A DNA stretch of 62,970 nt, counting the filler, from Craspedostauros australis (lineage: Eukaryota), in NCBI GenBank assembly GCA_030167865.1. It is 8 parts of 8 records of this genome, joined end to end, with 100 filler letters (N's around TTAATTAATTAA, not from the genome) between each part and the next. Parts side by side here need not be neighbours in the genome. Positions count along the whole stretch, not along the records: positions 2,273 to 11,657 come from JALAGF010000736.1; 7 more parts are not named here. One strand, written 5' to 3'. Under the pieces are notes generated by a model. The model did no database searches and had not been told where the DNA came from. It was given only the letters and a program-made list of their open reading frames with translations. The position numbers and the translations under genes were made by a program. This document shows positions 106-44,719 of the stretch, piece after piece. Positions within the stretch are counted from its first letter, which is position 1, and each line of letters starts with the position of its first letter.

Positions 106-1170
106 AAATAAATATATAACCCACTGATTAGCTGTTCCATACCCACGGCTGCGTCGTTGATGCTTTTCTCCGCCTCCTTTCAACTTCGCATGGCACGCGA
201 AGGGGGAACGGACTCGGGTCGATTGTGTTCCTTATGTTGATGTTGGTGCCGGTGTCGGTTTGCCCTGTGCTATCCTGAAGCCGTTGGGTGTACCCACCTT
301 CTTCCACTTGTACAAGGGCCCGCTAGCAACAGGCTCCTGTAGGATTGCGGCGGTTTGCTCCATCCACATCGCCAGGCCCGACGCTGGGGCTTGCCTGCCT
401 GGGTATGCGGATTTGGCATGGCCTAGAGCTGCGTCATTGTTGCTCAACTGATCGAGGATGGTCTGCACGCATTCCTGCATTGCTTGAAGCATGGCTCCTT
501 CCGCAGAGTCTTGACTGGTGTGCATATCATCATTGCATGAGAACCATTGGTCCCATGTGATGCGCCATATTCGCTGCATGATCTCAGCTGCCCATTTGCC
601 TGTGCTGTGTCATGATCCTTGTGATTCCAGAAAGAGGGCTTGTTGTTTCATCCACTGTATGCCCAGCAGCCCCAAGTTGTAGAGATTGTGGCCCAGCCTC
701 TTGCTGGTGCTGAGCCACTGCTGTGATGCCAAGCCCTGCATCAGGAGGTTGAAGATGCATGGTGCCTGCGGTCTGGCTTTTGAGCAGGGCTGTCACCACT
801 CGCATGAGTTGCGGGCTGGTGGGGCATCGCATCATCCATTTCTGCAGCCTGAGAATCCCTTGCCCTGCGATCTTGTGCCAGATCTCGGCCTGACAGCACC
901 AGAAGTGAGCCGTTATCTCTTCCTGGCTGCAGCTCTGGCATGTGCTGGATTCCTGGTGGCCCCATTGGTGCATGCACCTTCCGAATGCTGCCTCACCTGT
1001 CGCCAATTTGAAGGTCAGTGTGGCCTTTGCCCGATCCAGGCCCTGCATGGCCTTGCCCACTGTGTCCCATTCTATGTGCCTCCCATCATTTATCACCTTC
1101 CACTGCCTCAGTCTGTTGGAATGTGCATATGTATGTGTGCATCAGTCACCCATTGTTCTCTTGTAATCTG
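106..1170 (-). mobile_element. Decayed, 5'-truncated Ambal-like non-LTR retrotransposon (3' end of ORF2 plus 3' UTR)
   Basis: Broken ORFs 584-1096 and 232-579 resemble the ORF2 C-terminus of the intact element (FKLATGEAAFGRCMHQWG..CQSCSQEEITAHFWCC vs AKMSTGFIGVGVKLKQYG..CPWCGQAESVMHVVRC). It ends in TAATCAGTGGGTTA (130-117) plus a degenerate T/A tail. The 5' boundary is approximate. Confidence 0.75.
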
Positions 1171-2272: not shown

Positions 2273-2361
2273 CCAGTAGGTTTTGAATTCACGTAAGAGT
2301 CAGTACTGAAACTACGGTTATCGCCAACGGTTTCGGAACTCGTGAACGTACGTTGCCAACA

Positions 2362-5244
2362 ATGACAAAACGCATAAAATTTAAAAAGACACAGAGTGTT
2401 TACAAGACCAGCATGACGCCAATGACAAAGGACGACGATGGTGACCCCTCCCGCAGCAAACAGCGCAAGAAACAAGTGAATTTCGGAGGAGTTACGATTT
2501 CGGGCATTCCCAACAACGGCATCGCTAAAAAGCAAGCGGTGTGGACGTCAGAGGAAGAGACAGAGGCAAAAAGGAAGATGACGACGAGCAACGCCAAGCC
2601 GTATCCGGAATGCGTAGGAGCAGGAGACTCGGTCAACACAGCATGGCGGGTCGTTCGGAGCCACCTTGACTGTGAAAGAGGGGACCTGGAGTCGATGGAA
2701 GCATGGGTCGATGTGTTCAAGAAAGGCAGAGCTTGTCACTGGGACGCAGCCACAAACCAGAAGGTCCAACAGATGGAAGCAAGGCTGCTGGCCACGAAAG
2801 CAGACATGTTTCCACCAGTGTTCTGGGAAGAAGGGAACATCATGGGCAGCATCATGACCAACCCTTGGATAGCAGCTCGCAAGGTCAACACAGCCAACCC
2901 AGCGGAATCACCGGAGAAGCGACGTAGAATCGGCGACACTGAAAAGGCAAAGTCAAACAAGCCAATGAACCAGCACACCAACGGTAGACAAGAGGACAAG
3001 GACACCGCGTCAGCACCCAAGGCCACAACCAACAAGAAGAAGCCAAGCCCGATCAACACAAAAGACGCCGGAAAACCAGTGAGCTGTACCAGCAACCCAT
3101 ACAAGAAGGGCTCCCCGACATTCGCAGAGGCGTTGAAATCGGTACCAATGACAACAGGCAAAGACGGGGCAGTTTTGCTTCCAGCCAACCAGTTCTTCCT
3201 GAGCAAACCCATGGTGAAAAGAGACCACAAACGCAACGTCAATGAATCCCTGGGCAGGCAGTTCAGTACCTACTGCACGTTTCGAAGCCCTACTCTGAAA
3301 GGCAAGGACAAGGCCGTGGAGAAGGAGGTGACCGAAGCACTAGCAATGGTCATGGAACACTTATTCACCCAGGACCCCGACCTTGTTATCCACAGGTGGG
3401 ACGGTCAGGGTCAAGGACTTACTGCAAGCAGTGACAGAGTGACCTCCGCCTCCAAGATCAGACACTACGTGAACAAGATGTACACAAAGGCAGGGAAACA
3501 AACCTGGTGCCGTTTCTACTTCTCACACAACAAGGAGTGGGCTGAACTGCAGGACGATGGACAGCTGTCAGACAACGACATCATCTTGTCCAAATGCACT
3601 GTTCAAGCAAGGGAAGAAGTGCCAGTCGGGTGGTTTTGCGCGAGTCATAGATCCACCAATTGCAACGACCTGACTGAAGCCATCAACAACCTGGAAGACG
3701 TCGTGAAAGCAAAGATCAAGGTCGGCATCAGGATGCAAGCAATCAAACTGGACAAGTATGAGAAAATCAAGAAAGAGGACCAGGTCTACGCAGCTCACAT
3801 CTTGGCGAGTAAGGAGGACTCCATCAAGTGCGAGCAGATTATGGGCAAGCTTTTTGCGGCAGGAAAGAACAGAATCCTAGGCAAGCGGCTCCGCTTCATT
3901 TCGGACCTCACGGATGAACAACGACCAGCAACTCATGAAGACAGACGCAACGCGATGCTCTACAAAAAGAAGCAGAAGGAGTTCTTGGAGGGCACGAAGA
4001 CCACCATCGTTTCCTTCATCCACGGACTCGACTATGTGGAGCCCAAGAACAAGGTATCCCTGCGCAACGTCCTCTCTAAGCTGATGTCAACATCAGGAGA
4101 CAAAGAAGGGTCAGCGCTGTTCTTGGCGGTGGAGAACGGAAGAAATTGGGGGGACACGGTATTTGTCTATAGTCAGGAGGTGGCAGATGAGGCAAGCATG
4201 ATTATCCCGCTCCTTCCCACTGTCATATACAAGTACTGCGGAGGCAAAGCAGCAACCTGGTTCACGGACTATATCTGGGACGCCAACACCAGCTACGAAA
4301 TGAACATGCACGGAGAGATTATCAAGGCGGATTGGGAGAGAGATATCCTCAAGAAACAGGTGGATGACGAGTGGTACGCCAGCATGGGACTTCAACGTCC
4401 AGAAGAAGACACAGAACAACAGGAGGACGCACAACCCAAGATGACCTTCGCCATTGACTTTGGTACGGTCCCGAAGACCATGGATGGAGACCACGGATCG
4501 GTAGGGGTGATGCGACGATGGCACAACTGCGACGACGTTTCATTGAAATCAGCCATAACGTCGATGAAATCGCAGTGTCCGGAAGCCAAAAAAGAGACAA
4601 TGCGAGTGGTTGGCGAGGCGATGAAAAAGCTGGAAGTGATTGACCCGCAGGCTAGAGCCCAATGGATGGAAGCTCTGCTGGGCCCCAGTGTAGCCGAGCA
4701 GCCACAACGCGCCAACACCAACGACGTGGAAGCCCAACCAGGACAGGATCGGCTCGGGCAGACTCCGGAAGGCAGGGACGTCGACCAACCAACCCAATCC
4801 TTGCAAGCGCTCAGAGACCGGAACAAAGACGACGATTTCGTGGGCGAAGCGGACGACGGATCCATGTCAGATGTGTCTATGGAGTCTGCAACTCCATATG
4901 GCGGAGACGATGCACACCATGCCGAGGTAGTCAACCTGGTGGACATTTCGTCAGACGACGGATCGGTGGAACCATCAACCCAGCTAACCACCCGCACAAT
5001 GCAAACAAGAGGCCAAACCAAGAAACACCAGAAGTCAGCACTTCAGAACAACAGAAAGGGGAGCATCCCTGAGAGTGAGGAACCCAGAAGAGCGGTTAGC
5101 CCAGTGAAGAAGGCCCGACCAAAGAAGGGTGCACCAAAGGGGAGGAAAGAAGGGCCAAGCGTGAGGCCAACAACGCAGCAAGGAACAACTGCGCCAACCA
5201 ACGATTCCACTGCCAGCGACGAGAGGGTCGCAGGCCAAGCATGA
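2362..5244 (+). CDS. Retrotransposon ORF1 protein (~960 aa, Lys-rich/disordered termini, no recognisable RRM or zinc knuckle)
   Basis: Open frame from TTG 2353 with first ATG at 2362. Lies immediately upstream of the RT ORF; its TGA overlaps the ORF2 ATG. Confidence 0.88.
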   Translation: MTKRIKFKKTQSVYKTSMTPMTKDDDGDPSRSKQRKKQVNFGGVTISGIPNNGIAKKQAVWTSEEETEAKRKMTTSNAKPYPECVGAGDSVNTAWRVVRSHLDCERGDLESMEAWVDVFKKGRACHWDAATNQKVQQMEARLLATKADMFPPVFWEEGNIMGSIMTNPWIAARKVNTANPAESPEKRRRIGDTEKAKSNKPMNQHTNGRQEDKDTASAPKATTNKKKPSPINTKDAGKPVSCTSNPYKKGSPTFAEALKSVPMTTGKDGAVLLPANQFFLSKPMVKRDHKRNVNESLGRQFSTYCTFRSPTLKGKDKAVEKEVTEALAMVMEHLFTQDPDLVIHRWDGQGQGLTASSDRVTSASKIRHYVNKMYTKAGKQTWCRFYFSHNKEWAELQDDGQLSDNDIILSKCTVQAREEVPVGWFCASHRSTNCNDLTEAINNLEDVVKAKIKVGIRMQAIKLDKYEKIKKEDQVYAAHILASKEDSIKCEQIMGKLFAAGKNRILGKRLRFISDLTDEQRPATHEDRRNAMLYKKKQKEFLEGTKTTIVSFIHGLDYVEPKNKVSLRNVLSKLMSTSGDKEGSALFLAVENGRNWGDTVFVYSQEVADEASMIIPLLPTVIYKYCGGKAATWFTDYIWDANTSYEMNMHGEIIKADWERDILKKQVDDEWYASMGLQRPEEDTEQQEDAQPKMTFAIDFGTVPKTMDGDHGSVGVMRRWHNCDDVSLKSAITSMKSQCPEAKKETMRVVGEAMKKLEVIDPQARAQWMEALLGPSVAEQPQRANTNDVEAQPGQDRLGQTPEGRDVDQPTQSLQALRDRNKDDDFVGEADDGSMSDVSMESATPYGGDDAHHAEVVNLVDISSDDGSVEPSTQLTTRTMQTRGQTKKHQKSALQNNRKGSIPESEEPRRAVSPVKKARPKKGAPKGRKEGPSVRPTTQQGTTAPTNDSTASDERVAGQA

Positions 5245-8200
5245 GAGTCCCTTTGGAGACAAACAAGGGAGGGCACCCGAAAAGGGAGTCGTCCCAGCTG
5301 GTGCGAGGGCGTAAAAAGGAGGGAGGGCGGACGCAACCAGAGGCAAAGGAGCCACCGAGCAAGGAGACACAGGAAGAACAAAACAGAGGATACAACAACA
5401 CATGCAACACAAGGCCAAAGGAGCCACCAACGATGACAAAAGAGGTGAGATCAACTAACATACCGGCGGGCCATTGTTCGTCACTAACTGGTAATACAAA
5501 TAACGACGACCGCCGTAAAACAGCCTCAACGAGGGAAAGGAGAGGAACAGAGCGAGTCCCGCCAACTGAAACCACAACGACTGACAGGGACGAGTCGACA
5601 GAACGAGAAGCGCGCGAACCGAGGACCCATGACAGATCCCCACCACAAAGGGCACGCGAAATGCCAGAGGAAGGAATTTTCGGCAACAGAATGAGAACTC
5701 CGGACACAGGAGCGATACGACTGGCGTTCCAAAACATTGGAAGATTGCCGGTGGAGCCATGGAAAGGAAAAAACAAGCAAATCGGAGAAGAGATACAGAA
5801 AAGGCACATTGACGTGCTGATGCTGGCGGAGATAGGGCTCAACTGGAGGGCAATGAAGGAAGGAGACTCCTGGGCCCGACGAGTGGGTCACTGGAAAATG
5901 CGAGCCAAAGCGACGGCATCCTACAACCACAATTGCGCATCAACAAACAAAGTGCAATTTGGAGGCACGGGCATAGTCACTGCCAACGGCTTGTCCAAGA
6001 GGGTGGTGGATGAGGGCGAGGACCTGAGCCGCCTGGGAAGATGGGTTTGGCAACGAATTGAGGGACGGAAGGGTAAACATATCCGGGTGGTGGCCGCCTA
6101 CAGGGCGTGCGCGTCCTCTAGGCCAACTTCCACGTGGGCACAACAGCGTACCCACCTGCTAGAACAAGGAGACAACAGGGAACCAAGAGAAGCGATGCTA
6201 CTCGACCTGGCACAAGCAATCCAAGAATGGAAACAAGAAGGAGACGGCGTGATAGTGGGCATCGACGCGAATCAGGACGTCGCCAAAGGCAGTTGCGCAG
6301 AGATGTTCGAGGCACTCGGAATGCGCGAAGCCATCACTGAGCTGCATCGAGGGCATCAACGACAGGCTACCCAGCACCGCAACAAGACCCACGTCCCGAT
6401 CGACGGCTTGTATGCGACAAAGGACATTGAAGTCACAGCGGCCGGGTACGCAGGTTTTGGCGAGGCCATCCACTCCGACCACCGCATGATATGGATCGAC
6501 ATCAAGGAGTCAAGTGCGATTGGCAAATTGAACCCATTGGTGGGCGTGGAACCAAGACGCCTGCGAATGGCGGACAAAGCGGCAGTGCAAGCGTACCAGG
6601 AATCCCTTTGGAAGAAGGCGCAACAGCTGGGATTTCATTGGAGGATGGAAGAGTTGGAGCAAGCAGTGAGGCTGCAGGGTACCGTGACGGCGGAGTTGGC
6701 CACCGAATACGACAGCATCGACAAGGGTATGGACAAACTGCGCATGGAGACCGAGCGCGAGTGTAGGAAGCTCAAGATGGGGGCACTGGAGTGGTCACCA
6801 ATGCTGAAACGACTACGAGACACAGTGAGACTGTGGACAGCAGTGCAGAAAAAGTACAGCAACATACACATCAGCTCGTCGCTCATCCGTCGGTTATCCA
6901 AAAGGCTTGGGATCCAGCGACCTCGTCAACTGGGGCCAGCAGAAGTGGCAACCAGATTGGTTGAGGCACGCAAAGCCTACAAAGAGGCCAAGCCCCGTGC
7001 ATCCCAGATGCGTGATGACTTTATGAGGGACAAAGGAGAGAAAGAAGCAGCCAAATGGGGGACGGCCATTGAGAGCACCCCTAGCCACGTCCGCAGGGCG
7101 AGAGAACGACAGATCCGAGACAACCGGAGGTTAAAGGCGTGCCTGAAACCAAAGCAAACCCTGGCTACCAAGGTCACGCTTACTGACGACGACGGAAATG
7201 TCACAGTGTGTGATACAAAACATACCATCGAAGTGGCTTGCATCGAAGAAAACAAGCGAAGGTTCCATCAGACAGTGGGTACCCCGTTTACGACCGGACG
7301 TCTCCGCAGCCGGTTTGGTTTCTTGGCCGACACCCAAGAAGCCGATGCCGTGTATAAGGGAGAGTGGCAGCCCACGGTACAGGAGGACATGTATCCGCGG
7401 ATGCTGTTGTCTCAGGTGGGGCTTACACCATCGGCGGTCCCGAATTCCACATTTACCATCGAGGACCATGTCGAAGGCTGGGCAAAACAGAAAGAGAGAA
7501 CAGCGTCGGAGCCATCGGCACCGCATTTCGGGCATTTTAAGGCGGCGGCGGAACATGAAGGTCTGGCAGCCATTGACTGCAGGTTGCGCAGGATACCATA
7601 CGAAACAGGATTCACCCCAGCATCGTGGACGGTGATGACAGACTTCCAAATCCTCAAAAAAGCAGGAGTATTCGACGTCACCAAGATGCGGACCATTCAG
7701 CTCTTCCACCCGGCCTTCAACATGAACAATAAGAAGCTGGGAAGGGACCTCATGGTTACAGCTGAAAGCAACAATCGCATGGCCACAGAACAATTCGGCA
7801 GTCGAAAAGGCCACAAGGCGTCAACCGCAGCCCTGTGCAAAAGGGTGGTGGTGGATGTGATGCGCCAAAAACGACAAGACGGGGCAATCTGCTCTAACGA
7901 CGCCAAGTCGTGCTATGATCGGGTGGTCCACAGTGTGGCCTCCATGGCCATGGTGCATGCTGGGGGGCGAAGGTCAGCGGTGAGGTCGATGTTTGGCACC
8001 CTACAGAAGGCGCGACACCACGTCAGGACGGCATACGGAGTGTCAGATCGCTCGTACGGCAATACAGGGTGGACGCCGATGCAAGGGCTGGCTCAAGGAA
8101 ACGGCTGCGGGCCGGCGGCCTGGGCAGCTATAAGCTCCCCGATGTTCGAAGCAATGCGGTCCAAACAACACGGAGCGCGGTTCAAGTCGGCCCTTAGCGG

Positions 8201-11200
8201 TCAGGAAGTCAGCCTGGTGGGTTTGAGTTTTGTTGATGATGCGGATTTGATGATCTCGCAACCAAATGAGCACTTCAGTACCGTGGCACAACGAACTCAG
8301 GCAGCGCTCACAGATTGGGAAGGGGTTCTCCGAGCAACAGGAGGAGCCTTGGTGCCGGCCAAAAGCTTCTGGTGGGGTCTGTCGTTTGAGTACAGGTCTG
8401 GAGGGTGGAGGATGCAAGCGGCCCGAGCGACTCCAGCCCAGGTGAGAGTGCGGGATGCGGCAGGGATCCAAACGGAGCTGCGGAGGCTCGACCCACGCGA
8501 GTCAGAACAAACTCTGGGTGTATTCATGAACATGGAGGGTACTTCAGAGGCACAGGTGCGATACCTGAGGCGGAAGGCCGACGACTTTGCGGACAAAGTG
8601 GTTTCCGGAGGCCTGCGACAAGATTTGGTGTGGATGGCAATCACTACGAGGATTACTAAGACGTTGGAATACCCCATGGAGGCAATCACTCTTACCCAAC
8701 GGCAGTGGGACTTCATATACGCGCCGATTTGGACTAAGGCCCTTCCCCGAGGGGGTGTGGCCCGGTCGTTCCCAAGAGCTGTGCTTTACGGGCCCAGGGC
8801 CCATGGGGGGATTGGGATGCGCAACCCCGCGGTTTGGCAGCTGTCGGTGCAAATACAGTCGATGGCTCATGAGGTGAACACAGGCTCCATCACAGGCCGA
8901 ATGATCCAGCTGTCGATCGAACAAACCAAGCTTGAGACCGCCGGAGGCGGACCACTTTTCCAGCAAAGCTTTGCCGAATGCAAGGGCCACATCACGCCGA
9001 CGTGGGTGACCCAAGTGTGGTCGAACGCCCAGCGCTTCGGTGTTTCCATTGTGGAGACGGGGGTGTCAATCGAGAGACAACGAGTGGGAGATGTGTTCTT
9101 GCTGGACAGCTGGCGCTGTCAGGGGTATAGCTCCAAGCAGAAGGCGGTGCTCAATGAATGCCGCATGCAACTGGGGGTGGTTACCCTTGCGGATATGGTG
9201 ACAGCGGATGGTACCAGCATCATGCGACTGGCCTTTGACGGAGTTCAGGCGGGAACCCAGGGATCCAGCGGGCGCCCTCGCGTGCCACGGAAGCTTACCC
9301 GCAAACACTGGCTGCTGTGGCAAGAGTGGATTGAAGGATTGACGGAGGGCCGCCATCTGCGCTTACGACGACGAATGCAGGCGTGGCTGCGGGATGACAG
9401 GGGGTGGTTGTGGTGGCGACGGCCCAATGACGACGGTGTCGCATGGCAGCGGTTGGACTCCGGCTTCCGAGTGTGGCGCAGGACGCAAGGTCGGAGGGCA
9501 AGAAGGGCGGAGTTCCAAGCCACCAACGAGGTGAGCGCACGCCTGCCTACGCATGCCCGGCGCTCCTCCGTCCAGTGTGTGAACCCCCATGGGGTGGTGC
9601 TCGCAGTGGTAGAAACGCCACGAATAGGGGAGACAGTGCCAAATACTCCGCGCGACAAGCCCGACGGTTCAAATCAAGCCTGGGAGCGGGACCAGGTGTC
9701 GGGCGATGCGTCAGACGCGGAACTGAGAGCGGCCATTCGCAGAGGGGATCTTATGGCGGTCAGTGATGGCTCGTTCAAGCGAGGATTTGGGACGTCGGCC
9801 TACGTCTTACACATCATGGACTCCGGGGTGCAGCGCACGGGGTGCAACGTAGTGCCAGGGGCAAGGGAAGTGCAGTCGGCGTACCGAAGTGAACTAGCTG
9901 GAGTGGCTGGGGTTCTGCGTGAGCTCGTGGAGCTGGAAAGGGGCGGCGACCTCGGACCAGGACCGGTAGTGATAGGGTTAGACGGGATGAAGGCGATGGA
10001 GAACAGCAGGGATGGAGTGGCACATGTGGGCAGGCCGTCGTTCGATATGCTAGATCATATCAAGGCGCTGCGTCGGAGGTTGGCTGTGGCGGTGCGTTTC
10101 CGGTGGGTGCGAGGGCACCAGGACGACCAGTCGGAAGTGCTGGATCAATGGGCGCTTCTCAATGTCCACTGCGATTCGGAGGCCAAAAAGTACTGGGACA
10201 AGATGCAGCACAAGACACCACCCCAGTGGCGCAGCGACGGCTCATTTGCCTGGAAGTTGTACGTGGGAGACATGAAGTCGTCTTGGGCGGCCGCAGGCAT
10301 ACATGATGCAGTGGTAGGCGGGGCGGTTGAGACCTATTGGGACAAGAAAATGGGGCGAGTGCGACAGGACAGCGGCTCTATTGAGGCCCACGGGCGCCGA
10401 AGTGCATGTGCGAGAGCATCCTGGAAGCAGCGGCTGTTTGTGGCAAAGATGTCCACGGGCTTTATCGGGGTCGGCGTCAAGCTGAAGCAGTACGGCGCCG
10501 AAGAGCGGTGCCCGTGGTGTGGGCAGGCCGAGTCCGTTATGCATGTGGTCAGGTGTTCAGCTTCAGGAGGAGGCTGGGAGGAGTGCTTTCAACAGTACGT
10601 GGAGGAGTTGGAGACCATCGGTACGAGTGGTCCGCTTGTCAGCTTGGTCTACTCAAGTCTTCGGGGGTTCTGTGGCCGTGCTGTGAGGGAGGGCTTCCAG
10701 GAGGAGGTTCCTGTGCGATGGTGGCCCGTTCTCATGGGCTGGATACCGCGAGATTGGTGTGAGCAGCAACAGAGGTGGTTCGTGGAGCACGGGTCGGGAC
10801 GGCGTTTCTACACCGTGGAGTCCTGGGCCCGCGACGCGGTTCTGGCAGGTTGGCGCTTTGTGCACAGCATGTGGCGGTGTCGTAATCAGGCTAAGCAAGC
10901 GGAGGCGGCAGTCCTCGCCGCGATGAGTGCGCGACGTGAGGAGCTAGAGGAGGTCACGGAGAGACACAACGGTTTCAGTGGGTGGGAGGGGTGCGACTTG
11001 GCAGTGGCCGGGAGTGGTGCTGCACCTAGTCCGTTGGCGGGGGCTGACACGAGACGAGCATGGCTTCGGTTTGTGCGCGCAGTGCGTGCACGGGCCCCGG
11101 ACAATGTCGCTGTGGAGGCGGCGGACTCCGGCGGCAGTGCGGTCGGCTCGAATCCACCAGATACGGGAGGGTCAGGCGAGTTTGCATGGTACAGCAGGGA

Positions 11201-11330
11201 GGACGATGGCGACTATCGGGGCATTGTGGTCGACGATACAGACGCCGAAGGCGCTCCAGCCCGAGCACAGGCCGCCTGCGGCGGCCTGTGCAGGGCAGAG
11301 CGCCTTCGGCTGGGCATGGTGGGCGATTGA
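5241..11330 (+). CDS. Retrotransposon ORF2 polyprotein: AP-like endonuclease, reverse transcriptase, RNase H, CCHC zinc finger (2029 aa)
   Basis: APE motifs FQNIG, LAEIG, IDGLY, SDH. RT motifs QFGSRKG, NDAKSCYDRV, QGNGCGP, FVDD. RNase H motifs VSDGSF, YRSELAG, GLDG, WVRGHQD, NVHCDSEAK. Finger CPWC-x7-H-x3-C. Confidence 0.95.
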   Translation: MRVPLETNKGGHPKRESSQLVRGRKKEGGRTQPEAKEPPSKETQEEQNRGYNNTCNTRPKEPPTMTKEVRSTNIPAGHCSSLTGNTNNDDRRKTASTRERRGTERVPPTETTTTDRDESTEREAREPRTHDRSPPQRAREMPEEGIFGNRMRTPDTGAIRLAFQNIGRLPVEPWKGKNKQIGEEIQKRHIDVLMLAEIGLNWRAMKEGDSWARRVGHWKMRAKATASYNHNCASTNKVQFGGTGIVTANGLSKRVVDEGEDLSRLGRWVWQRIEGRKGKHIRVVAAYRACASSRPTSTWAQQRTHLLEQGDNREPREAMLLDLAQAIQEWKQEGDGVIVGIDANQDVAKGSCAEMFEALGMREAITELHRGHQRQATQHRNKTHVPIDGLYATKDIEVTAAGYAGFGEAIHSDHRMIWIDIKESSAIGKLNPLVGVEPRRLRMADKAAVQAYQESLWKKAQQLGFHWRMEELEQAVRLQGTVTAELATEYDSIDKGMDKLRMETERECRKLKMGALEWSPMLKRLRDTVRLWTAVQKKYSNIHISSSLIRRLSKRLGIQRPRQLGPAEVATRLVEARKAYKEAKPRASQMRDDFMRDKGEKEAAKWGTAIESTPSHVRRARERQIRDNRRLKACLKPKQTLATKVTLTDDDGNVTVCDTKHTIEVACIEENKRRFHQTVGTPFTTGRLRSRFGFLADTQEADAVYKGEWQPTVQEDMYPRMLLSQVGLTPSAVPNSTFTIEDHVEGWAKQKERTASEPSAPHFGHFKAAAEHEGLAAIDCRLRRIPYETGFTPASWTVMTDFQILKKAGVFDVTKMRTIQLFHPAFNMNNKKLGRDLMVTAESNNRMATEQFGSRKGHKASTAALCKRVVVDVMRQKRQDGAICSNDAKSCYDRVVHSVASMAMVHAGGRRSAVRSMFGTLQKARHHVRTAYGVSDRSYGNTGWTPMQGLAQGNGCGPAAWAAISSPMFEAMRSKQHGARFKSALSGQEVSLVGLSFVDDADLMISQPNEHFSTVAQRTQAALTDWEGVLRATGGALVPAKSFWWGLSFEYRSGGWRMQAARATPAQVRVRDAAGIQTELRRLDPRESEQTLGVFMNMEGTSEAQVRYLRRKADDFADKVVSGGLRQDLVWMAITTRITKTLEYPMEAITLTQRQWDFIYAPIWTKALPRGGVARSFPRAVLYGPRAHGGIGMRNPAVWQLSVQIQSMAHEVNTGSITGRMIQLSIEQTKLETAGGGPLFQQSFAECKGHITPTWVTQVWSNAQRFGVSIVETGVSIERQRVGDVFLLDSWRCQGYSSKQKAVLNECRMQLGVVTLADMVTADGTSIMRLAFDGVQAGTQGSSGRPRVPRKLTRKHWLLWQEWIEGLTEGRHLRLRRRMQAWLRDDRGWLWWRRPNDDGVAWQRLDSGFRVWRRTQGRRARRAEFQATNEVSARLPTHARRSSVQCVNPHGVVLAVVETPRIGETVPNTPRDKPDGSNQAWERDQVSGDASDAELRAAIRRGDLMAVSDGSFKRGFGTSAYVLHIMDSGVQRTGCNVVPGAREVQSAYRSELAGVAGVLRELVELERGGDLGPGPVVIGLDGMKAMENSRDGVAHVGRPSFDMLDHIKALRRRLAVAVRFRWVRGHQDDQSEVLDQWALLNVHCDSEAKKYWDKMQHKTPPQWRSDGSFAWKLYVGDMKSSWAAAGIHDAVVGGAVETYWDKKMGRVRQDSGSIEAHGRRSACARASWKQRLFVAKMSTGFIGVGVKLKQYGAEERCPWCGQAESVMHVVRCSASGGGWEECFQQYVEELETIGTSGPLVSLVYSSLRGFCGRAVREGFQEEVPVRWWPVLMGWIPRDWCEQQQRWFVEHGSGRRFYTVESWARDAVLAGWRFVHSMWRCRNQAKQAEAAVLAAMSARREELEEVTERHNGFSGWEGCDLAVAGSGAAPSPLAGADTRRAWLRFVRAVRARAPDNVAVEAADSGGSAVGSNPPDTGGSGEFAWYSREDDGDYRGIVVDDTDAEGAPARAQAACGGLCRAERLRLGMVGD

Positions 11331-11757
11331 GGTGACGCGCTTCCCGTGTCGGCACGTGAGTGGGCCCCAGCCCCAGCCGAAGACGATCGGGCCCGAACCC
11401 GGGCCGCCTCCGGCAGCTCGGGTGCAGGCCGATCGCCTTCGGCTGGGGCCGTGGGCCCGTAGCAAGGCGGCCGTTTGGCGGGGACGGGTCTCAGGTCCGG
11501 CGCCCTAGGCACGGTGGTCGTCTGGATTTAGTGAGTGGGCGTGGCAGGCGCTCTTGTTTGTAATGCTCGACCTGGCCGTGGCCGTGCGTCGCGGTCGGGC
11601 GAGCCTAAAGCCCTCGGGGCACCCCTTTCTTGGGTTAGTCATTGTGGTTATTATTATNNNNNNNNNNNNNNNNNNNNNNNNNNNNNNNNNNNNNNNNNNN
11701 NTTAATTAATTAANNNNNNNNNNNNNNNNNNNNNNNNNNNNNNNNNNNNNNNNNNNN

Positions 11758-14700
11758 AATCGGCGCGTATATGAAGTCCCACTGCCGTTGGGTAAGAGTG
11801 ATTGCCTCCATGGGGTATTCCAACGTCTTAGTAATCCTCGTAGTGATTGCCATCCACACCAAATCTTGTCGCAGGCCTCCGGAAACCACTTTGTCCGCAA
11901 AGTCGTCGGCCTTCCGCCTCAGGTATCGCACCTGTGCCTCTGAAGTACCCTCCATGTTCATGAATACACCCAGAGTTTGTTCTGACTCGCGTGGGTCGAG
12001 CCTCCGCAGCTCCGTTTGGATCCCTGCCGCATCCCGCACTCTCACCTGGGCTGGAGTCGCTCGGGCCGCTTGCATCCTCCACCCTCCAGACCTGTACTCA
12101 AACGACAGACCCCACCAGAAGCTTTTGGCCGGCACCAAGGCTCCTCCTGTTGCTCGGAGAACCCCTTCCCAATCTGTGAGCGCTGCCTGAGTTCGTTGTG
12201 CCACGGTACTGAAGTGCTCATTTGGTTGCGAGATCATCAAATCCGCATCATCAACAAAACTCAAACCCACCAGGCTGACTTCCTGACCGCTAAGGGCCGA
12301 CTTGAACCGCGCTCCGTGTTGTTTGGACCGCATTGCTTCGAACATCGGGGAGCTTATAGCTGCCCAGGCCGCCGGCCCGCAGCCGTTTCCTTGAGCCAGC
12401 CCTTGCATCGGCGTCCACCCTGTATTGCCGTACGAGCGATCTGACACTCCGTATGCCGTCCTGACGTGGTGTCGCGCCTTCTGTAGGGTGCCAAACATCG
12501 ACCTCACCGCTGACCTTCGCCCCCCAGCATGCACCATGGCCATGGAGGCCACACTGTGGACCACCCGATCATAGCACGACTTGGCGTCGTTAGAGCAGAT
12601 TGCCCCGTCTTGTCGTTTTTGGCGCATCACATCCACCACCACCCTTTTGCACAGGGCTGCGGTTGACGCCTTGTGGCCTTTTCGACTGCCGAATTGTTCT
12701 GTGGCCATGCGATTGTTGCTTTCAGCTGTAACCATGAGGTCCCTTCCCAGCTTCTTATTGTTCATGTTGAAGGCCGGGTGGAAGAGCTGAATGGTCCGCA
12801 TCTTGGTGACGTCGAATACTCCTGCTTTTTTGAGGATTTGGAAGTCTGTCATCACCGTCCACGATGCTGGGGTGAATCCTGTTTCGTATGGTATCCTGCG
12901 CAACCTGCAGTCAATGGCTGCCAGACCTTCATGTTCCGCCGCCGCCTTAAAATGCCCGAAATGCGGTGCCGATGGCTCCGACGCTGTTCTCTCTTTCTGT
13001 TTTGCCCAGCCTTCGACATGGTCCTCGATGGTAAATGTGGAATTCGGGACCGCCGATGGTGTAAGCCCCACCTGAGACAACAGCATCCGCGGATACATGT
13101 CCTCCTGTACCGTGGGCTGCCACTCTCCCTTATACACGGCATCGGCTTCTTGGGTGTCGGCCAAGAAACCAAACCGGCTGCGGAGACGTCCGGTCGTAAA
13201 CGGGGTACCCACTGTCTGATGGAACCTTCGCTTGTTTTCTTCGATGCAAGCCACTTCGATGGTATGTTTTGTATCACACACTGTGACATTTCCGTCGTCG
13301 TCAGTAAGCGTGACCTTGGTAGCCAGGGTTTGCTTTGGTTTCAGGCACGCCTTTAACCTCCGGTTGTCTCGGATCTGTCGTTCTCTCGCCCTGCGGACGT
13401 GGCTAGGGGTGCTCTCAATGGCCGTCCCCCATTTGGCTGCTTCTTTCTCTCCTTTGTCCCTCATAAAGTCATCACGCATCTGGGATGCACGGGGCTTGGC
13501 CTCTTTGTAGGCTTTGCGTGCCTCAACCAATCTGGTTGCCACTTCTGCTGGCCCCAGTTGACGAGGTCGCTGGATCCCAAGCCTTTTGGATAACCGACGG
13601 ATGAGCGACGAGCTGATGTGTATGTTGCTGTACTTTTTCTGCACTGCTGTCCACAGTCTCACTGTGTCTCGTAGTCGTTTCAGCATTGGTGACCACTCCA
13701 GTGCCCCCATCTTGAGCTTCCTACACTCGCGCTCGGTCTCCATGCGCAGTTTGTCCATACCCTTGTCGATGCTGTCGTATTCGGTGGCCAACTCCGCCGT
13801 CACGGTACCCTGCAGCCTCACTGCTTGCTCCAACTCTTCCATCCTCCAATGAAATCCCAGCTGTTGCGCCTTCTTCCAAAGGGATTCCTGGTACGCTTGC
13901 ACTGCCGCTTTGTCCGCCATTCGCAGGCGTCTTGGTTCCACGCCCACCAATGGGTTCAATTTGCCAATCGCACTTGACTCCTTGATGTCGATCCATATCA
14001 TGCGGTGGTCGGAGTGGATGGCCTCGCCAAAACCTGCGTACCCGGCCGCTGTGACTTCAATGTCCTTTGTCGCATACAAGCCGTCGATCGGGACGTGGGT
14101 CTTGTTGCGGTGCTGGGTAGCCTGTCGTTGATGCCCTCGATGCAGCTCAGTGATGGCTTCGCGCATTCCGAGTGCCTCGAACATCTCTGCGCAACTGCCT
14201 TTGGCGACGTCCTGATTCGCGTCGATGCCCACTATCACGCCGTCTCCTTCTTGTTTCCATTCTTGGATTGCTTGTGCCAGGTCGAGTAGCATCGCTTCTC
14301 TTGGTTCCCTGTTGTCTCCTTGTTCTAGCAGGTGGGTACGCTGTTGTGCCCACGTGGAAGTTGGCCTAGAGGACGCGCACGCCCTGTAGGCGGCCACCAC
14401 CCGGATATGTTTACCCTTCCGTCCCTCAATTCGTTGCCAAACCCATCTTCCCAGGCGGCTCAGGTCCTCGCCCTCATCCACCACCCTCTTGGACAAGCCG
14501 TTGGCAGTGACTATGCCCGTGCCTCCAAATTGCACTTTGTTTGTTGATGCGCAATTGTGGTTGTAGGATGCCGTCGCTTTGGCTCGCATTTTCCAGTGAC
14601 CCACTCGTCGGGCCCAGGAGTCTCCTTCCTTCATTGCCCTCCAGTTGAGCCCTATCTCCGCCAGCATCAGCACGTCAATGTGCCTTTTCTGTATCTCTTC

Positions 14701-15246
14701 TCCGATTTGCTTGTTTTTTCCTTTCCATGGCTCCACCGGCAATCTTCCAATGTTTTGGAACGCCAGTCGTATCGCTCCTGTGTCCGGAGTTCTCATTCTG
14801 TTGCCGAAAATTCCTTCCTCTGGCATTTCGCGTGCCCTTTGTGGTGGGGATCTGTCATGGGTCCTCGGTTCGCGCGCTTCTCGTTCTGTCGACTCGTCCC
14901 TGTCAGTCGTTGTGGTTTCAGTTGGCGGGACTCGCTCTGTTCCTCTCCTTTCCCTCGTTGAGGCTGTTTTACGGCGGTCGTCGTTATTTGTATTACCAGT
15001 TAGTGACGAACAATGGCCCGCCGGTATGTTAGTTGATCTCACCTCTTTTGTCATCGTTGGTGGCTCCTTTGGCCTTGTGTTGCATGTGTTGTTGTATCCT
15101 CTGTTTTGTTCTTCCTGTGTCTCCTTGCTCGGTGGCTCCTTTGCCTCTGGTTGCGTCCGCCCTCCCTCCTTTTTACGCCCTCGCACCAGCTGGGACGACT
15201 CCCTTTTCGGGTGCCCTCCCTTGTTTGTCTCCAAAGGGACTCTCAT
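11758..15246 (-). CDS. ORF2 (endonuclease + RT), partial, truncated by gap
   Basis: Translation identical to the N-terminal ~1160 aa of 5241-11330. Confidence 0.9.
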
Positions 15247-18125
15247 GCTTGGCCTGCGACCCTCTCGTCGCTGGCAGTGGAATCGTTGGTTGGCGCAGTT
15301 GTTCCTTGCTGCGTTGTTGGCCTCACGCTTGGCCCTTCTTTCCTCCCCTTTGGTGCACCCTTCTTTGGTCGGGCCTTCTTCACTGGGCTAACCGCTCTTC
15401 TGGGTTCCTCACTCTCAGGGATGCTCCCCTTTCTGTTGTTCTGAAGTGCTGACTTCTGGTGTTTCTTGGTTTGGCCTCTTGTTTGCATTGTGCGGGTGGT
15501 TAGCTGGGTTGATGGTTCCACCGATCCGTCGTCTGACGAAATGTCCACCAGGTTGACTACCTCGGCATGGTGTGCATCGTCTCCGCCATATGGAGTTGCA
15601 GACTCCATAGACACATCTGACATGGATCCGTCGTCCGCTTCGCCCACGAAATCGTCGTCTTTGTTCCGGTCTCTGAGCGCTTGCAAGGATTGGGTTGGTT
15701 GGTCGACGTCCCTGCCTTCCGGAGTCTGCCCGAGCCGATCCTGTCCTGGTTGGGCTTCCACGTCGTTGGTGTTGGCGCGTTGTGGCTGCTCGGCTACACT
15801 GGGGCCCAGCAGAGCTTCCATCCATTGGGCTCTAGCCTGCGGGTCAATCACTTCCAGCTTTTTCATCGCCTCGCCAACCACTCGCATTGTCTCTTTTTTG
15901 GCTTCCGGACACTGCGATTTCATCGACGTTATGGCTGATTTCAATGAAACGTCGTCGCAGTTGTGCCATCGTCGCATCACCCCTACCGATCCGTGGTCTC
16001 CATCCATGGTCTTCGGGACCGTACCAAAGTCAATGGCGAAGGTCATCTTGGGTTGTGCGTCCTCCTGTTGTTCTGTGTCTTCTTCTGGACGTTGAAGTCC
16101 CATGCTGGCGTACCACTCGTCATCCACCTGTTTCTTGAGGATATCTCTCTCCCAATCCGCCTTGATAATCTCTCCGTGCATGTTCATTTCGTAGCTGGTG
16201 TTGGCGTCCCAGATATAGTCCGTGAACCAGGTTGCTGCTTTGCCTCCGCAGTACTTGTATATGACAGTGGGAAGGAGCGGGATAATCATGCTTGCCTCAT
16301 CTGCCACCTCCTGACTATAGACAAATACCGTGTCCCCCCAATTTCTTCCGTTCTCCACCGCCAAGAACAGCGCTGACCCTTCTTTGTCTCCTGATGTTGA
16401 CATCAGCTTAGAGAGGACGTTGCGCAGGGATACCTTGTTCTTGGGCTCCACATAGTCGAGTCCGTGGATGAAGGAAACGATGGTGGTCTTCGTGCCCTCC
16501 AAGAACTCCTTCTGCTTCTTTTTGTAGAGCATCGCGTTGCGTCTGTCTTCATGAGTTGCTGGTCGTTGTTCATCCGTGAGGTCCGAAATGAAGCGGAGCC
16601 GCTTGCCTAGGATTCTGTTCTTTCCTGCCGCAAAAAGCTTGCCCATAATCTGCTCGCACTTGATGGAGTCCTCCTTACTCGCCAAGATGTGAGCTGCGTA
16701 GACCTGGTCCTCTTTCTTGATTTTCTCATACTTGTCCAGTTTGATTGCTTGCATCCTGATGCCGACCTTGATCTTTGCTTTCACGACGTCTTCCAGGTTG
16801 TTGATGGCTTCAGTCAGGTCGTTGCAATTGGTGGATCTATGACTCGCGCAAAACCACCCGACTGGCACTTCTTCCCTTGCTTGAACAGTGCATTTGGACA
16901 AGATGATGTCGTTGTCTGACAGCTGTCCATCGTCCTGCAGTTCAGCCCACTCCTTGTTGTGTGAGAAGTAGAAACGGCACCAGGTTTGTTTCCCTGCCTT
17001 TGTGTACATCTTGTTCACGTAGTGTCTGATCTTGGAGGCGGAGGTCACTCTGTCACTGCTTGCAGTAAGTCCTTGACCCTGACCGTCCCACCTGTGGATA
17101 ACAAGGTCGGGGTCCTGGGTGAATAAGTGTTCCATGACCATTGCTAGTGCTTCGGTCACCTCCTTCTCCACGGCCTTGTCCTTGCCTTTCAGAGTAGGGC
17201 TTCGAAACGTGCAGTAGGTACTGAACTGCCTGCCCAGGGATTCATTGACGTTGCGTTTGTGGTCTCTTTTCACCATGGGTTTGCTCAGGAAGAACTGGTT
17301 GGCTGGAAGCAAAACTGCCCCGTCTTTGCCTGTTGTCATTGGTACCGATTTCAACGCCTCTGCGAATGTCGGGGAGCCCTTCTTGTATGGGTTGCTGGTA
17401 CAGCTCACTGGTTTTCCGGCGTCTTTTGTGTTGATCGGGCTTGGCTTCTTCTTGTTGGTTGTGGCCTTGGGTGCTGACGCGGTGTCCTTGTCCTCTTGTC
17501 TACCGTTGGTGTGCTGGTTCATTGGCTTGTTTGACTTTGCCTTTTCAGTGTCGCCGATTCTACGTCGCTTCTCCGGTGATTCCGCTGGGTTGGCTGTGTT
17601 GACCTTGCGAGCTGCTATCCAAGGGTTGGTCATGATGCTGCCCATGATGTTCCCTTCTTCCCAGAACACTGGTGGAAACATGTCTGCTTTCGTGGCCAGC
17701 AGCCTTGCTTCCATCTGTTGGACCTTCTGGTTTGTGGCTGCGTCCCAGTGACAAGCTCTGCCTTTCTTGAACACATCGACCCATGCTTCCATCGACTCCA
17801 GGTCCCCTCTTTCACAGTCAAGGTGGCTCCGAACGACCCGCCATGCTGTGTTGACCGAGTCTCCTGCTCCTACGCATTCCGGATACGGCTTGGCGTTGCT
17901 CGTCGTCATCTTCCTTTTTGCCTCTGTCTCTTCCTCTGACGTCCACACCGCTTGCTTTTTAGCGATGCCGTTGTTGGGAATGCCCGAAATCGTAACTCCT
18001 CCGAAATTCACTTGTTTCTTGCGCTGTTTGCTGCGGGAGGGGTCACCATCGTCGTCCTTTGTCATTGGCGTCATGCTGGTCTTGTAAACACTCTGTGTCT
18101 TTTTAAATTTTATGCGTTTTGTCAT
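15243..18125 (-). CDS. Retrotransposon ORF1 protein, copy 2
   Basis: Translation identical to copy 1 ORF1 (track ORF extends to TTG 18134). Confidence 0.88.
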   Translation of the reverse strand: MTKRIKFKKTQSVYKTSMTPMTKDDDGDPSRSKQRKKQVNFGGVTISGIPNNGIAKKQAVWTSEEETEAKRKMTTSNAKPYPECVGAGDSVNTAWRVVRSHLDCERGDLESMEAWVDVFKKGRACHWDAATNQKVQQMEARLLATKADMFPPVFWEEGNIMGSIMTNPWIAARKVNTANPAESPEKRRRIGDTEKAKSNKPMNQHTNGRQEDKDTASAPKATTNKKKPSPINTKDAGKPVSCTSNPYKKGSPTFAEALKSVPMTTGKDGAVLLPANQFFLSKPMVKRDHKRNVNESLGRQFSTYCTFRSPTLKGKDKAVEKEVTEALAMVMEHLFTQDPDLVIHRWDGQGQGLTASSDRVTSASKIRHYVNKMYTKAGKQTWCRFYFSHNKEWAELQDDGQLSDNDIILSKCTVQAREEVPVGWFCASHRSTNCNDLTEAINNLEDVVKAKIKVGIRMQAIKLDKYEKIKKEDQVYAAHILASKEDSIKCEQIMGKLFAAGKNRILGKRLRFISDLTDEQRPATHEDRRNAMLYKKKQKEFLEGTKTTIVSFIHGLDYVEPKNKVSLRNVLSKLMSTSGDKEGSALFLAVENGRNWGDTVFVYSQEVADEASMIIPLLPTVIYKYCGGKAATWFTDYIWDANTSYEMNMHGEIIKADWERDILKKQVDDEWYASMGLQRPEEDTEQQEDAQPKMTFAIDFGTVPKTMDGDHGSVGVMRRWHNCDDVSLKSAITSMKSQCPEAKKETMRVVGEAMKKLEVIDPQARAQWMEALLGPSVAEQPQRANTNDVEAQPGQDRLGQTPEGRDVDQPTQSLQALRDRNKDDDFVGEADDGSMSDVSMESATPYGGDDAHHAEVVNLVDISSDDGSVEPSTQLTTRTMQTRGQTKKHQKSALQNNRKGSIPESEEPRRAVSPVKKARPKKGAPKGRKEGPSVRPTTQQGTTAPTNDSTASDERVAGQA

Positions 18126-18287
18126 TGTTGGCAACGTACGTTCACGAGTTCCGAAACCGTTGGCGATAACCGTAGTTTCAGTACTGACTCTTACGTGAAT
18201 TCAAAACCTACTGGGTCTACGTACGCCTTTTTAATTCAGCGATTCCAGAAGAGTGCCTTATGTACGCTACAAACTCGGATGCGCAGC

Positions 18288-38121: not shown

Positions 38122-38221
38122 NNNNNNNNNNNNNNNNNNNNNNNNNNNNNNNNNNNNNNNNNNNNTTAATTAATTAANNNNNNNNNNNNNNNNNNNNNNN
38201 NNNNNNNNNNNNNNNNNNNNN

Positions 38222-41200
38222 AATCGGCGCGTATATGAAGTCCCACTGCCGTTGGGTAAGAGTGATTGCCTCCATGGGGTATTCCAACGTCTTAGTAATC
38301 CTCGTAGTGATTGCCATCCACACCAAATCTTGTCGCAGGCCTCCGGAAACCACTTTGTCCGCAAAGTCGTCGGCCTTCCGCCTCAGGTATCGCACCTGTG
38401 CCTCTGAAGTACCCTCCATGTTCATGAATACACCCAGAGTTTGTTCTGACTCGCGTGGGTCGAGCCTCCGCAGCTCCGTTTGGATCCCTGCCGCATCCCG
38501 CACTCTCACCTGGGCTGGAGTCGCTCGGGCCGCTTGCATCCTCCACCCTCCAGACCTGTACTCAAACGACAGACCCCACCAGAAGCTTTTGGCCGGCACC
38601 AAGGCTCCTCCTGTTGCTCGGAGAACCCCTTCCCAATCTGTGAGCGCTGCCTGAGTTCGTTGTGCCACGGTACTGAAGTGCTCATTTGGTTGCGAGATCA
38701 TCAAATCCGCATCATCAACAAAACTCAAACCCACCAGGCTGACTTCCTGACCGCTAAGGGCCGACTTGAACCGCGCTCCGTGTTGTTTGGACCGCATTGC
38801 TTCGAACATCGGGGAGCTTATAGCTGCCCAGGCCGCCGGCCCGCAGCCGTTTCCTTGAGCCAGCCCTTGCATCGGCGTCCACCCTGTATTGCCGTACGAG
38901 CGATCTGACACTCCGTATGCCGTCCTGACGTGGTGTCGCGCCTTCTGTAGGGTGCCAAACATCGACCTCACCGCTGACCTTCGCCCCCCAGCATGCACCA
39001 TGGCCATGGAGGCCACACTGTGGACCACCCGATCATAGCACGACTTGGCGTCGTTAGAGCAGATTGCCCCGTCTTGTCGTTTTTGGCGCATCACATCCAC
39101 CACCACCCTTTTGCACAGGGCTGCGGTTGACGCCTTGTGGCCTTTTCGACTGCCGAATTGTTCTGTGGCCATGCGATTGTTGCTTTCAGCTGTAACCATG
39201 AGGTCCCTTCCCAGCTTCTTATTGTTCATGTTGAAGGCCGGGTGGAAGAGCTGAATGGTCCGCATCTTGGTGACGTCGAATACTCCTGCTTTTTTGAGGA
39301 TTTGGAAGTCTGTCATCACCGTCCACGATGCTGGGGTGAATCCTGTTTCGTATGGTATCCTGCGCAACCTGCAGTCAATGGCTGCCAGACCTTCATGTTC
39401 CGCCGCCGCCTTAAAATGCCCGAAATGCGGTGCCGATGGCTCCGACGCTGTTCTCTCTTTCTGTTTTGCCCAGCCTTCGACATGGTCCTCGATGGTAAAT
39501 GTGGAATTCGGGACCGCCGATGGTGTAAGCCCCACCTGAGACAACAGCATCCGCGGATACATGTCCTCCTGTACCGTGGGCTGCCACTCTCCCTTATACA
39601 CGGCATCGGCTTCTTGGGTGTCGGCCAAGAAACCAAACCGGCTGCGGAGACGTCCGGTCGTAAACGGGGTACCCACTGTCTGATGGAACCTTCGCTTGTT
39701 TTCTTCGATGCAAGCCACTTCGATGGTATGTTTTGTATCACACACTGTGACATTTCCGTCGTCGTCAGTAAGCGTGACCTTGGTAGCCAGGGTTTGCTTT
39801 GGTTTCAGGCACGCCTTTAACCTCCGGTTGTCTCGGATCTGTCGTTCTCTCGCCCTGCGGACGTGGCTAGGGGTGCTCTCAATGGCCGTCCCCCATTTGG
39901 CTGCTTCTTTCTCTCCTTTGTCCCTCATAAAGTCATCACGCATCTGGGATGCACGGGGCTTGGCCTCTTTGTAGGCTTTGCGTGCCTCAACCAATCTGGT
40001 TGCCACTTCTGCTGGCCCCAGTTGACGAGGTCGCTGGATCCCAAGCCTTTTGGATAACCGACGGATGAGCGACGAGCTGATGTGTATGTTGCTGTACTTT
40101 TTCTGCACTGCTGTCCACAGTCTCACTGTGTCTCGTAGTCGTTTCAGCATTGGTGACCACTCCAGTGCCCCCATCTTGAGCTTCCTACACTCGCGCTCGG
40201 TCTCCATGCGCAGTTTGTCCATACCCTTGTCGATGCTGTCGTATTCGGTGGCCAACTCCGCCGTCACGGTACCCTGCAGCCTCACTGCTTGCTCCAACTC
40301 TTCCATCCTCCAATGAAATCCCAGCTGTTGCGCCTTCTTCCAAAGGGATTCCTGGTACGCTTGCACTGCCGCTTTGTCCGCCATTCGCAGGCGTCTTGGT
40401 TCCACGCCCACCAATGGGTTCAATTTGCCAATCGCACTTGACTCCTTGATGTCGATCCATATCATGCGGTGGTCGGAGTGGATGGCCTCGCCAAAACCTG
40501 CGTACCCGGCCGCTGTGACTTCAATGTCCTTTGTCGCATACAAGCCGTCGATCGGGACGTGGGTCTTGTTGCGGTGCTGGGTAGCCTGTCGTTGATGCCC
40601 TCGATGCAGCTCAGTGATGGCTTCGCGCATTCCGAGTGCCTCGAACATCTCTGCGCAACTGCCTTTGGCGACGTCCTGATTCGCGTCGATGCCCACTATC
40701 ACGCCGTCTCCTTCTTGTTTCCATTCTTGGATTGCTTGTGCCAGGTCGAGTAGCATCGCTTCTCTTGGTTCCCTGTTGTCTCCTTGTTCTAGCAGGTGGG
40801 TACGCTGTTGTGCCCACGTGGAAGTTGGCCTAGAGGACGCGCACGCCCTGTAGGCGGCCACCACCCGGATATGTTTACCCTTCCGTCCCTCAATTCGTTG
40901 CCAAACCCATCTTCCCAGGCGGCTCAGGTCCTCGCCCTCATCCACCACCCTCTTGGACAAGCCGTTGGCAGTGACTATGCCCGTGCCTCCAAATTGCACT
41001 TTGTTTGTTGATGCGCAATTGTGGTTGTAGGATGCCGTCGCTTTGGCTCGCATTTTCCAGTGACCCACTCGTCGGGCCCAGGAGTCTCCTTCCTTCATTG
41101 CCCTCCAGTTGAGCCCTATCTCCGCCAGCATCAGCACGTCAATGTGCCTTTTCTGTATCTCTTCTCCGATTTGCTTGTTTTTTCCTTTCCATGGCTCCAC

Positions 41201-44589: not shown

Positions 44590-44719
44590 TGTTGGCAACG
44601 TACGTTCACGAGTTCCGAAACCGTTGGCGATAACCGTAGTTTCAGTACTGACTCTTACGTGAATTCAAAACCTACTGGGTCTACGTACGCCTTTTTAATT
44701 CAGCGATTCCAGAAGAGTA

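Follow-up and report, generated by a model that had tools for sequence, protein, structure and literature searches.

A covarying three-helix RNA module at the 3′ ends of divergent LINE families and its probable role in recognition by the ORF2 protein

Organization of the window and the full-length LINE copy 1

The window, meaning the whole 62,970-base stretch of Craspedostauros australis DNA that was analysed, is made up of eight separate pieces, between which lie synthetic N44-TTAATTAATTAA-N44 linkers (2173-2272, 11658-11757, 38122-38221, 54359-54458, 57525-57624, 59419-59518, and 61390-61489). Features that run into a linker are therefore cut by the end of a piece and not by biology, an example being the TTA tail of copy 1 described below. 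A full-length LINE in + orientation, here called copy 1, occupies piece 2 (2273-11657), and two further copies of its family are present in the pieces that follow.

2353..5244, + strand, copy 1 ORF1: 963 aa, without a Pfam family
5241..11330, + strand, copy 1 ORF2: 2029 aa; matches RVT_1 and, weakly, APE
11758..18214, − strand, second copy of the copy 1 family (piece 3): 100% identity over 6457 nt
38222..44678, − strand, third copy of the copy 1 family (piece 4): 100% identity over 6457 nt

The ORF2 product of copy 1 matches RVT_1 with 34 bits, which is above the cut-off, and Exo_endo_phos with 16.1 bits, which is below it, while PF03372 is precomputed for many of its relatives in the protein collection. 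Its alignment with 17 relatives possesses invariant reverse transcriptase (RT) residues (VDD), RNase H-type invariants (DGS, E, D, H, D) and a C-x2-C-x7-H-x3-C (CCHC) motif. The relatives in the protein collection are without informative names, and no match to this ORF2 was found among PDB sequences, either by phmmer or by the profile of the 18 sequences. In its RT, the copy 1 ORF2 clade stands unusually far from L1 and R2 proteins. The window elements are assigned to the APE-type LINEs on the basis of an ORF2 with APE and RT, copies 2 and 3 (see below) being 5′-truncated.

The second and third copies of the copy 1 family match the stretch 2273-8729 (+) of copy 1, and the starts of ORF1 and ORF2 are intact in all three. 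Both break at the same base, this being the end of their piece, so that their 3′ ends are missing. Their 5′ flanks differ from one another and a TTA repeat is found in neither. Three copies that are 100% identical point either to a very young family, which may be active, or to collapse of a repeat during assembly; given at least three window copies with intact ORFs and 100% identity over 6.5 kb, the family may be active and usable for tests with mutants.

Genes other than those of the LINEs are also present in the window. A 440-aa ORF at 57847-59169 (+), lying on its own small piece and matching DDE_Tnp_4 with 75 bits, is a PIF/Harbinger-type DNA transposon gene. There is also a host-like gene at 26170-27588 (+) with a 3′5′-cyclic nucleotide phosphodiesterase domain (99.6 bits), while 46843-49608 (+) encodes a host-like protein of 921 aa with weak ankyrin matches (Ank_2 26.0 bits, the Pfam cut-off being 27.3).

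The 3′ termini of three window elements

The first-pass annotation of this DNA had quoted the terminal sequences of three elements, and all three strings were recovered from the window, each in its place and on its strand. Copy 2 (−, about 51366-52784) is a 5′-truncated element of a family other than that of copy 1, while a third family is represented by copy 3 (−, about 113-1141), a decayed fragment. The 3′ UTR of copy 1 reaches the end of its piece exactly, terminating in TTATTATTAT. The ORF2 C-termini are very divergent, as had been claimed, with 22% identity between copies 1 and 2 over 289 aa and, for copy 3, only a CCHC patch in common with these two. The features of the three ends are as follows.

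11566..11603, + strand, copy 1 P1: long hairpin, its 3′ arm being the GGGCGAG box (11597-11603)
11607..11609, + strand, copy 1 AAA: conserved, single-stranded, 5′ of P2
11610..11620, + strand, copy 1 P2: GC hairpin of 4 bp with a UCG loop
11621..11635, + strand, copy 1 P3: hairpin of 3-4 bp adjoining the motif
11636..11650, + strand, copy 1 terminal motif: variant with G at position 3 and one extra G
11648..11657, + strand, copy 1 (TTA)n tail: ends with the piece at the N linker
51624..52784, − strand, copy 2 ORF2 C-terminus, 5′-truncated: open frame of 386 aa with a weak zf-RVT match
51430..51467, − strand, copy 2 P1: the GGCGAC box (51435-51430) forms the basal stem with GTTGTT (51467-51462)
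51426-51424, − strand, copy 2 AAA
51413..51423, − strand, copy 2 P2: 11 nt with a UCG loop; one compensatory and one wobble change relative to copy 1
51397..51410, − strand, copy 2 P3: 5 bp, 2 nt away from the motif
51394-51381, − strand, copy 2 terminal motif: the first TTA unit lies inside it (51383-51381)
51380-51366, − strand, copy 2 TTA run after the motif: five further units
113..175, − strand, copy 3 module, decayed: box, AAAA, P2, P3, motif and degenerate tail
163-151, 150-130 and 130-117, − strand, copy 3 P2, P3 and motif, respectively: one mismatch per hairpin
232..1141, − strand, copy 3 ORF2 C-terminal fragments, decayed: two frames, CCHC patch kept

With copy 2, an alternative register of P3 adjoins the motif directly, and CpG decay is a plausible cause of the two stem mismatches of copy 3.

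Folding of the window sequences by RNAfold gave no better result than shuffles for the ends of ~116 nt (z = -1.46, 0.17, and -0.53) and positive z values for the cores of 52-53 nt, and the hairpins claimed for copy 3 are absent from its minimum-energy fold. The 13-nt motif, with 2 mismatches allowed, is not enriched within the window. By themselves the window sequences make a weak case in which the tail does not exceed chance; once sequences from outside are added, it does.

The module in metagenome loci

The pattern of the metagenome scan consisted only of the terminal motif and (TTA)4, with two more free positions than in the pilot scans, and at least 120 loci were obtained. As the scan fixed both motif and tail, the apparent invariance of these two is partly by construction. 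The pilot scans with (TTA)3 of viral and prokaryote collections had yielded 108 chance-motif matches, which were kept as negative controls and in none of which the tail architecture was seen by eye.

About half of the listed metagenome loci have one common layout upstream of the motif, and this layout is absent from the scan pattern. It comprises, from 5′ to 3′, a long hairpin (P1) with a GGCGAC-like box as its 3′ arm, 2-3 nt, AAA, a GC-rich hairpin (P2), usually one A, and an AU-rich hairpin (P3) which adjoins UAAUCAnUGnGUUA(UUA)n. The outer pairs of P3 change from locus to locus, examples being GUAG/CUAC, AUAG/CUAU, CUAG/CUAG, and CUAA/UUAG. The architecture first proposed from the window, namely large hairpin, AAA, GC-closed hairpin, second hairpin, motif and TTA, proves to be real in these loci and common to very divergent LINE families. 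Several diverged families bearing the module were found, among the loci listed, on contigs sharing one accession prefix, which parallels the three families of the window.

A strict alignment-free descriptor, in which a P3 of at least 4 bp adjoins the motif and AAA stands directly 5′ of a P2 hairpin, matched 24 of the 84 de-duplicated metagenome ends listed, 3 of 92 de-duplicated controls and 40 of 1680 shuffles. Stems of 4 bp are common, and the anchored P3 alone was present in 23/92 controls and 401/1680 shuffles.

A covariance model (R1) was built from a MAFFT alignment of 8 seed loci. None of the 108 controls reaches 27 bits with this model, the best having 26.8, while 52 of the 120 metagenome loci listed score above every control (27.2-75.7 bits), these being the 8 seeds, one seed duplicate and 43 others. 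In the window, copy 2 reaches 39.1 bits and copy 1 reaches 28.2 bits, both of which exceed all controls. A broader model (R2), built from 52 rows and run over the whole window with filters off, gave three matches only: copies 1 and 2, both of which belong to its training set, and copy 3 at 113-175(-) with 15.3 bits (E = 0.29). The best P3 of copy 2, situated 2 nt from the motif, was skipped in this match. Being the sole further match, copy 3 is a probable decayed member. The claim that all three window elements carry the module thus holds for copies 1 and 2, and weakly, at 15.3 bits, for copy 3.

The contribution of structure is apparent from a sequence-only model made from the same 8 seeds as R1. 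With this model, non-seed members score 15-27 bits lower than with R1 (L159 falls from 61.6 to 42.9 and L200 from 48.1 to 21.0), window copy 1 is missed and copy 2 is split into two 10-bit pieces. Controls drop by 2-13 bits, and members and controls then overlap.

Covariation and folding of the stems

The stem covariation suggested from the three window copies is present in the larger alignment. Among the 51 distinct rows of the 52-row model alignment, whose fitting to the model favours pairing, standard pairs make up 96.1% of the cells as against 62.9% in shuffles, none of the 500 shuffles matching the observed value, and sliding the partner by 1-3 columns leaves 27-49%. All 7 modelled pairs vary on both sides in these rows, and the covariation score is 0.660 versus 0.177. 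The outer pair of P3 is GC in 12 rows, UA in 10, CG in 9 and AU in 8. RNAalifold run on the same alignment recovered P2 and did not recover P3.

The P2-to-motif segment, of median length 28 nt and with boundaries taken from the model alignment, folds more stably than its own shuffles in the 43 non-seed rows, with a mean z of -1.57 compared with 0.05 for the controls (n=108; Mann-Whitney p about 1e-13). A z below -1 was obtained for 77% of the non-seed rows and for 12% of the 108 controls.

P1 was searched for as a basal stem of at least 6 bp ending at the box and enclosing 20-46 nt, and such a stem was found in 26/51 rows, compared with 15% of shuffles, the typical pairing being GUYGUU with GRCGAC. 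A search for contiguous P1 stems with no limit of distance gave a result barely above shuffles. In 15 rows picked for having P1, double changes occur in three of the six pairs, a count which is descriptive only.

The distal part of P1 is often closed by a UGCAA-like loop (GUGCAA, AUGCAA), as in the window at 51450-51440 and 11584-11588, and in loci L141, L128, L158, L186, L144, L200, L217, L163, L228, and L177. In one subfamily the stem beneath this loop has the compensatory forms CUGG/CCAG, UGUGG/CCACA, and CGUGG/CCACG. A fourth mini-hairpin within the motif (UAAU with GUUA) is possible, and its bases are among those fixed by the scan.

The module has two kinds of conserved part: in the stems pairing is kept and sequence is not, while in the single-stranded parts (AAA, A spacer and 14-nt motif) it is the sequence that is kept.

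LINE context and the 3′ terminus

The genomic context of the tail was examined in 28 model-positive loci of those listed, all with at least 700 nt upstream and with duplicates left out. Eighteen of the 28 have a sense-strand ORF2 C-terminus of the window type, one (L156) has a different compact RT, and nothing was detectable in the remaining nine, which may be short 5′-truncated copies. One locus, L141, is 99% identical over its last 605 residues to P0097, a protein which had been found independently as a relative by way of the RT region of the window ORF2.

Where no sense ORF of a locus is longer than the end of ORF2, the ORF2 stop codon precedes the motif by 33-345 nt, so that the module constitutes most or all of the 3′ UTR. 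Between families, nucleotide similarity is restricted to the module. In ten elements the ORF2 C-termini have a median amino acid identity of 26% (range 20-65%), while the tails of the same ten elements, compared over 54 model columns, have a median nucleotide identity of 59%.

The (TTA)n tail has from 3 to more than 8 units, the scan itself having demanded at least 4. In three same-family pairs from different loci, similarity stops 23-25 nt past the start of the motif, which is the end of the TTA run. The module is accordingly the true 3′ terminus of these elements, in agreement with the terminal position given to it in the first-pass annotation.

Proposed function and alternative explanations

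The module is terminal, covarying and followed by a variable number of repeats, and it is conserved across ORF2s of ~26% identity; it is probably a stringent-type LINE 3′ module for recognition and priming by the element's own ORF2 protein. Under this proposal the last ~95 nt of the element RNA would act in cis as a terminal module, to which the ORF2 protein (APE-RT-RNase H-CCHC) would bind on the RNA that encoded it. The protein would read both helix shape and the sequence of the single-stranded invariants, including UAAUCAnUGnGUUA. Once the endonuclease had nicked the target, target-primed reverse transcription (TPRT) would begin inside the UUA repeats, and slippage in these may give rise to their variable number. 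That the tail is the signal for RT recognition and TPRT initiation, as put forward in the first-pass annotation, is plausible and agrees with precedent. Protein binding and priming in the tail are what we infer by analogy with the stringent-type LINEs.

The main rival of the recognition role, and an unlikely one, is that the module is chiefly an element for 3′-end formation or stability of a transcript without poly(A), its terminal hairpins blocking exonucleases or directing cleavage, while the RT would need only the UUA repeats. Such a role would suit elements which terminate in TTA repeats instead of poly(A) and whose hairpins are compact and terminal, and for several of them no more than ~130 nt separate the ORF2 stop from the motif, making the module nearly the whole 3′ UTR. 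However, protection alone leaves unexplained why a single-stranded invariant of 14 nt is kept across ORF2s that are ~26% identical, and likewise why the AAA and A spacers are conserved, and the closest studied systems employ tails of this type in RT recognition. The two roles are compatible and could coexist.

Recognition by the ORF2 protein has also to be weighed against two readings in which the hairpins or the tail have no such meaning. In one of these the common end would reflect sequence homology alone, or the recent exchange of a segment, and would have no structural role, its hairpins being chance pairings selected by eye and by the model. This view draws on the frequency of 4-bp stems among controls and shuffles, on the folding of the window sequences and on the failure of RNAalifold to call P3. 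It is nevertheless very improbable, as both stems vary on both sides yet still pair, in a manner largely lost when the register is slid (27-49% pairing), and as similarity is confined to the module even though the ORF2s are so diverged; moreover, members and controls, which overlap under the sequence-only model, are told apart by the structural one and also by the folding z-scores. Another explanation would place the motif and TTA run in a specific insertion target and not in the element. Groups of site-specific LINEs do exist, and TTA microsatellites are frequent in AT-rich DNA. Yet the sequence right after the TTA run differs among same-family copies, the module is retained in 5′-truncated copies, and there is no separate tail between the 3′ UTR of ORF2 and the module. 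The absence of TTA from the 5′ junctions of two window copies likewise assigns the tail to the element, and an origin in the target is extremely unlikely.

Comparison with known LINE 3′ tails

Short tandem repeats likewise terminate the stringent-type LINE tails known from the L2 clade. A conserved 3′-terminal stem-loop in UnaL2 of eel and in ZfL2-1 and ZfL2-2 of zebrafish is described, in the available portions of the sources, as recognized by the ORF2 protein of the element itself and as required for retrotransposition (PMC1636434, PMC4176376). These tails have one hairpin, whereas the present module has three helices together with a 14-nt single-stranded invariant, and its repeat is UUA. 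The ORF2 proteins also differ, those described here having RNase H and CCHC parts and a profile that finds no solved relative. In zebrafish L2 the available text locates the tail-binding region between the EN and RT domains (PMC4176376), a point against the recognition proposed here.

A match in logic and in type of evidence is offered by an L1 lineage of monocots, the LINE1-1_ZM group, and by green-algal L1, in which, according to the portions of the report available, the last ~45 nt are far more conserved than the rest (Ohshima 2012, PMC3472496). The hairpin of these monocot elements has compensatory changes and flanking invariant single-stranded bases, read by the author as stringent recognition, and the case differs from the present one, as far as that text extends, in having one hairpin, known SINE partners and a clade assigned by phylogeny (PMC3472496). 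The module described here would extend the stringent-recognition model beyond animals and plants, the model itself being unchanged.

RandI/Dualen elements are defined by a second, restriction-like endonuclease. No PD-(D/E)xK pattern was seen after the CCHC motif when the C-terminal ORF2 sequences were read by eye. RandI families of green algae are listed with an (ATT)n 3′ repeat (PMC3472496, Table 1, from the portion available), which is the TTA repeat of the present tails in another phase.

The name Ambal (LINE/Ambal, CRE-Ambal) is, in the available portions of the sources, a Repbase clade name applied to LINEs of a diatom genome and of a dinoflagellate. There Ambal is listed as a clade added after the 2009 LINE classification and otherwise appears only in class lists and repeat tables. 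The first-pass annotation applied the name, as a putative label, to the present elements.

Rfam has no match in the window, in the end of copy 2 (E up to 1) or in 20 loci. We found no description of the module in the papers searched, and the first-pass annotation likewise knew of none; a note on it may exist within Repbase or Dfam entries. What is new is the particular three-helix module with its motif, the depth of its conservation and its host clade; the kind itself is known. It constitutes a structured RNA family of about 50 distinct sequences in which all modelled pairs covary and for which Rfam has no match, and its hosts are a widespread and essentially unstudied group of ~9.5-kb LINEs of environmental eukaryotes. 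The covariance model can be used to mark the exact 3′ ends of these LINEs in messy assemblies and as a route to non-autonomous partners, and the module itself suggests mutants in which stems, single-stranded invariants and repeat are set against one another.

Possible non-autonomous partners and tail exchange

A SINE partner was not found in the material searched, this being 40 loci for tRNA, 20 loci and the window for Rfam, and the window for the module. No tRNA gene or tRNA-derived head is present in the 40 loci.

Two loci have a unit consisting of little besides the module. L118:1896-2023 (-) and L193:43-170 (+) have only 105 nt, the motif and the tail in common, with 98% identity, and both start at the same 5′ base, which gives a unit of ~130 nt. 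The nearest full LINE is that of L181, with 84% identity across 82 nt of its 3′ UTR. The unit of L118 and L193, with two copies only, may be a tail-only non-autonomous element.

Locus L156 (1-2463) has a compact APE+RT LINE of another lineage (RVT_1 94.5 bits) with a textbook tail.

L156, 441-463, + of the locus: motif
L156, 497-2254, −: ORF

Relatives of this element are 1050-1350 aa long and possess only APE and RT. The ORF of L156 stops within the box, and its last ~12 residues differ from the C-terminus conserved in its closest relatives, the divergence setting in at the start of the tail. L156 may represent either tail capture or an assembly chimera.

An abundant repeat family of 30 microbial-mat loci (L113, L117, L140, L155, L171 and others among the loci listed) ends in TAGTCAATGAGTTA(TTA)n, nearly identical to the motif and TTA run of the module. 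Its copies are 5′-truncated at many points (31 to about 1200 nt), no RT is detectable within 1.2 kb of the tail, and the ORF situated upstream has an internal repeat and is without RT similarity. This family was considered as a member of the P2/P3 module and was rejected, as the sequence upstream of TAGTCAATGAGTTA is a misfit (about 14-19 bits).

These three leads, i.e., L156, the unit of L118 and L193, and the 30-locus family, raise the rather doubtful idea of the module as a portable retrotransposition passport moving between unrelated elements. Were this so, hitch-hikers in protist genomes would form a network mobilised in trans by a single RT lineage, and an autonomous LINE that captured the tail of another could thereby change or share its replication machinery.

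It is also worth mentioning that L142 has, at 154-1308 in the sense orientation, an ORF of 385 aa with an internal repeat and without RT similarity, ending 236 nt upstream of a tail scoring 53.3 bits. This may be a host gene beside a very short truncated copy, or else non-autonomous cargo.
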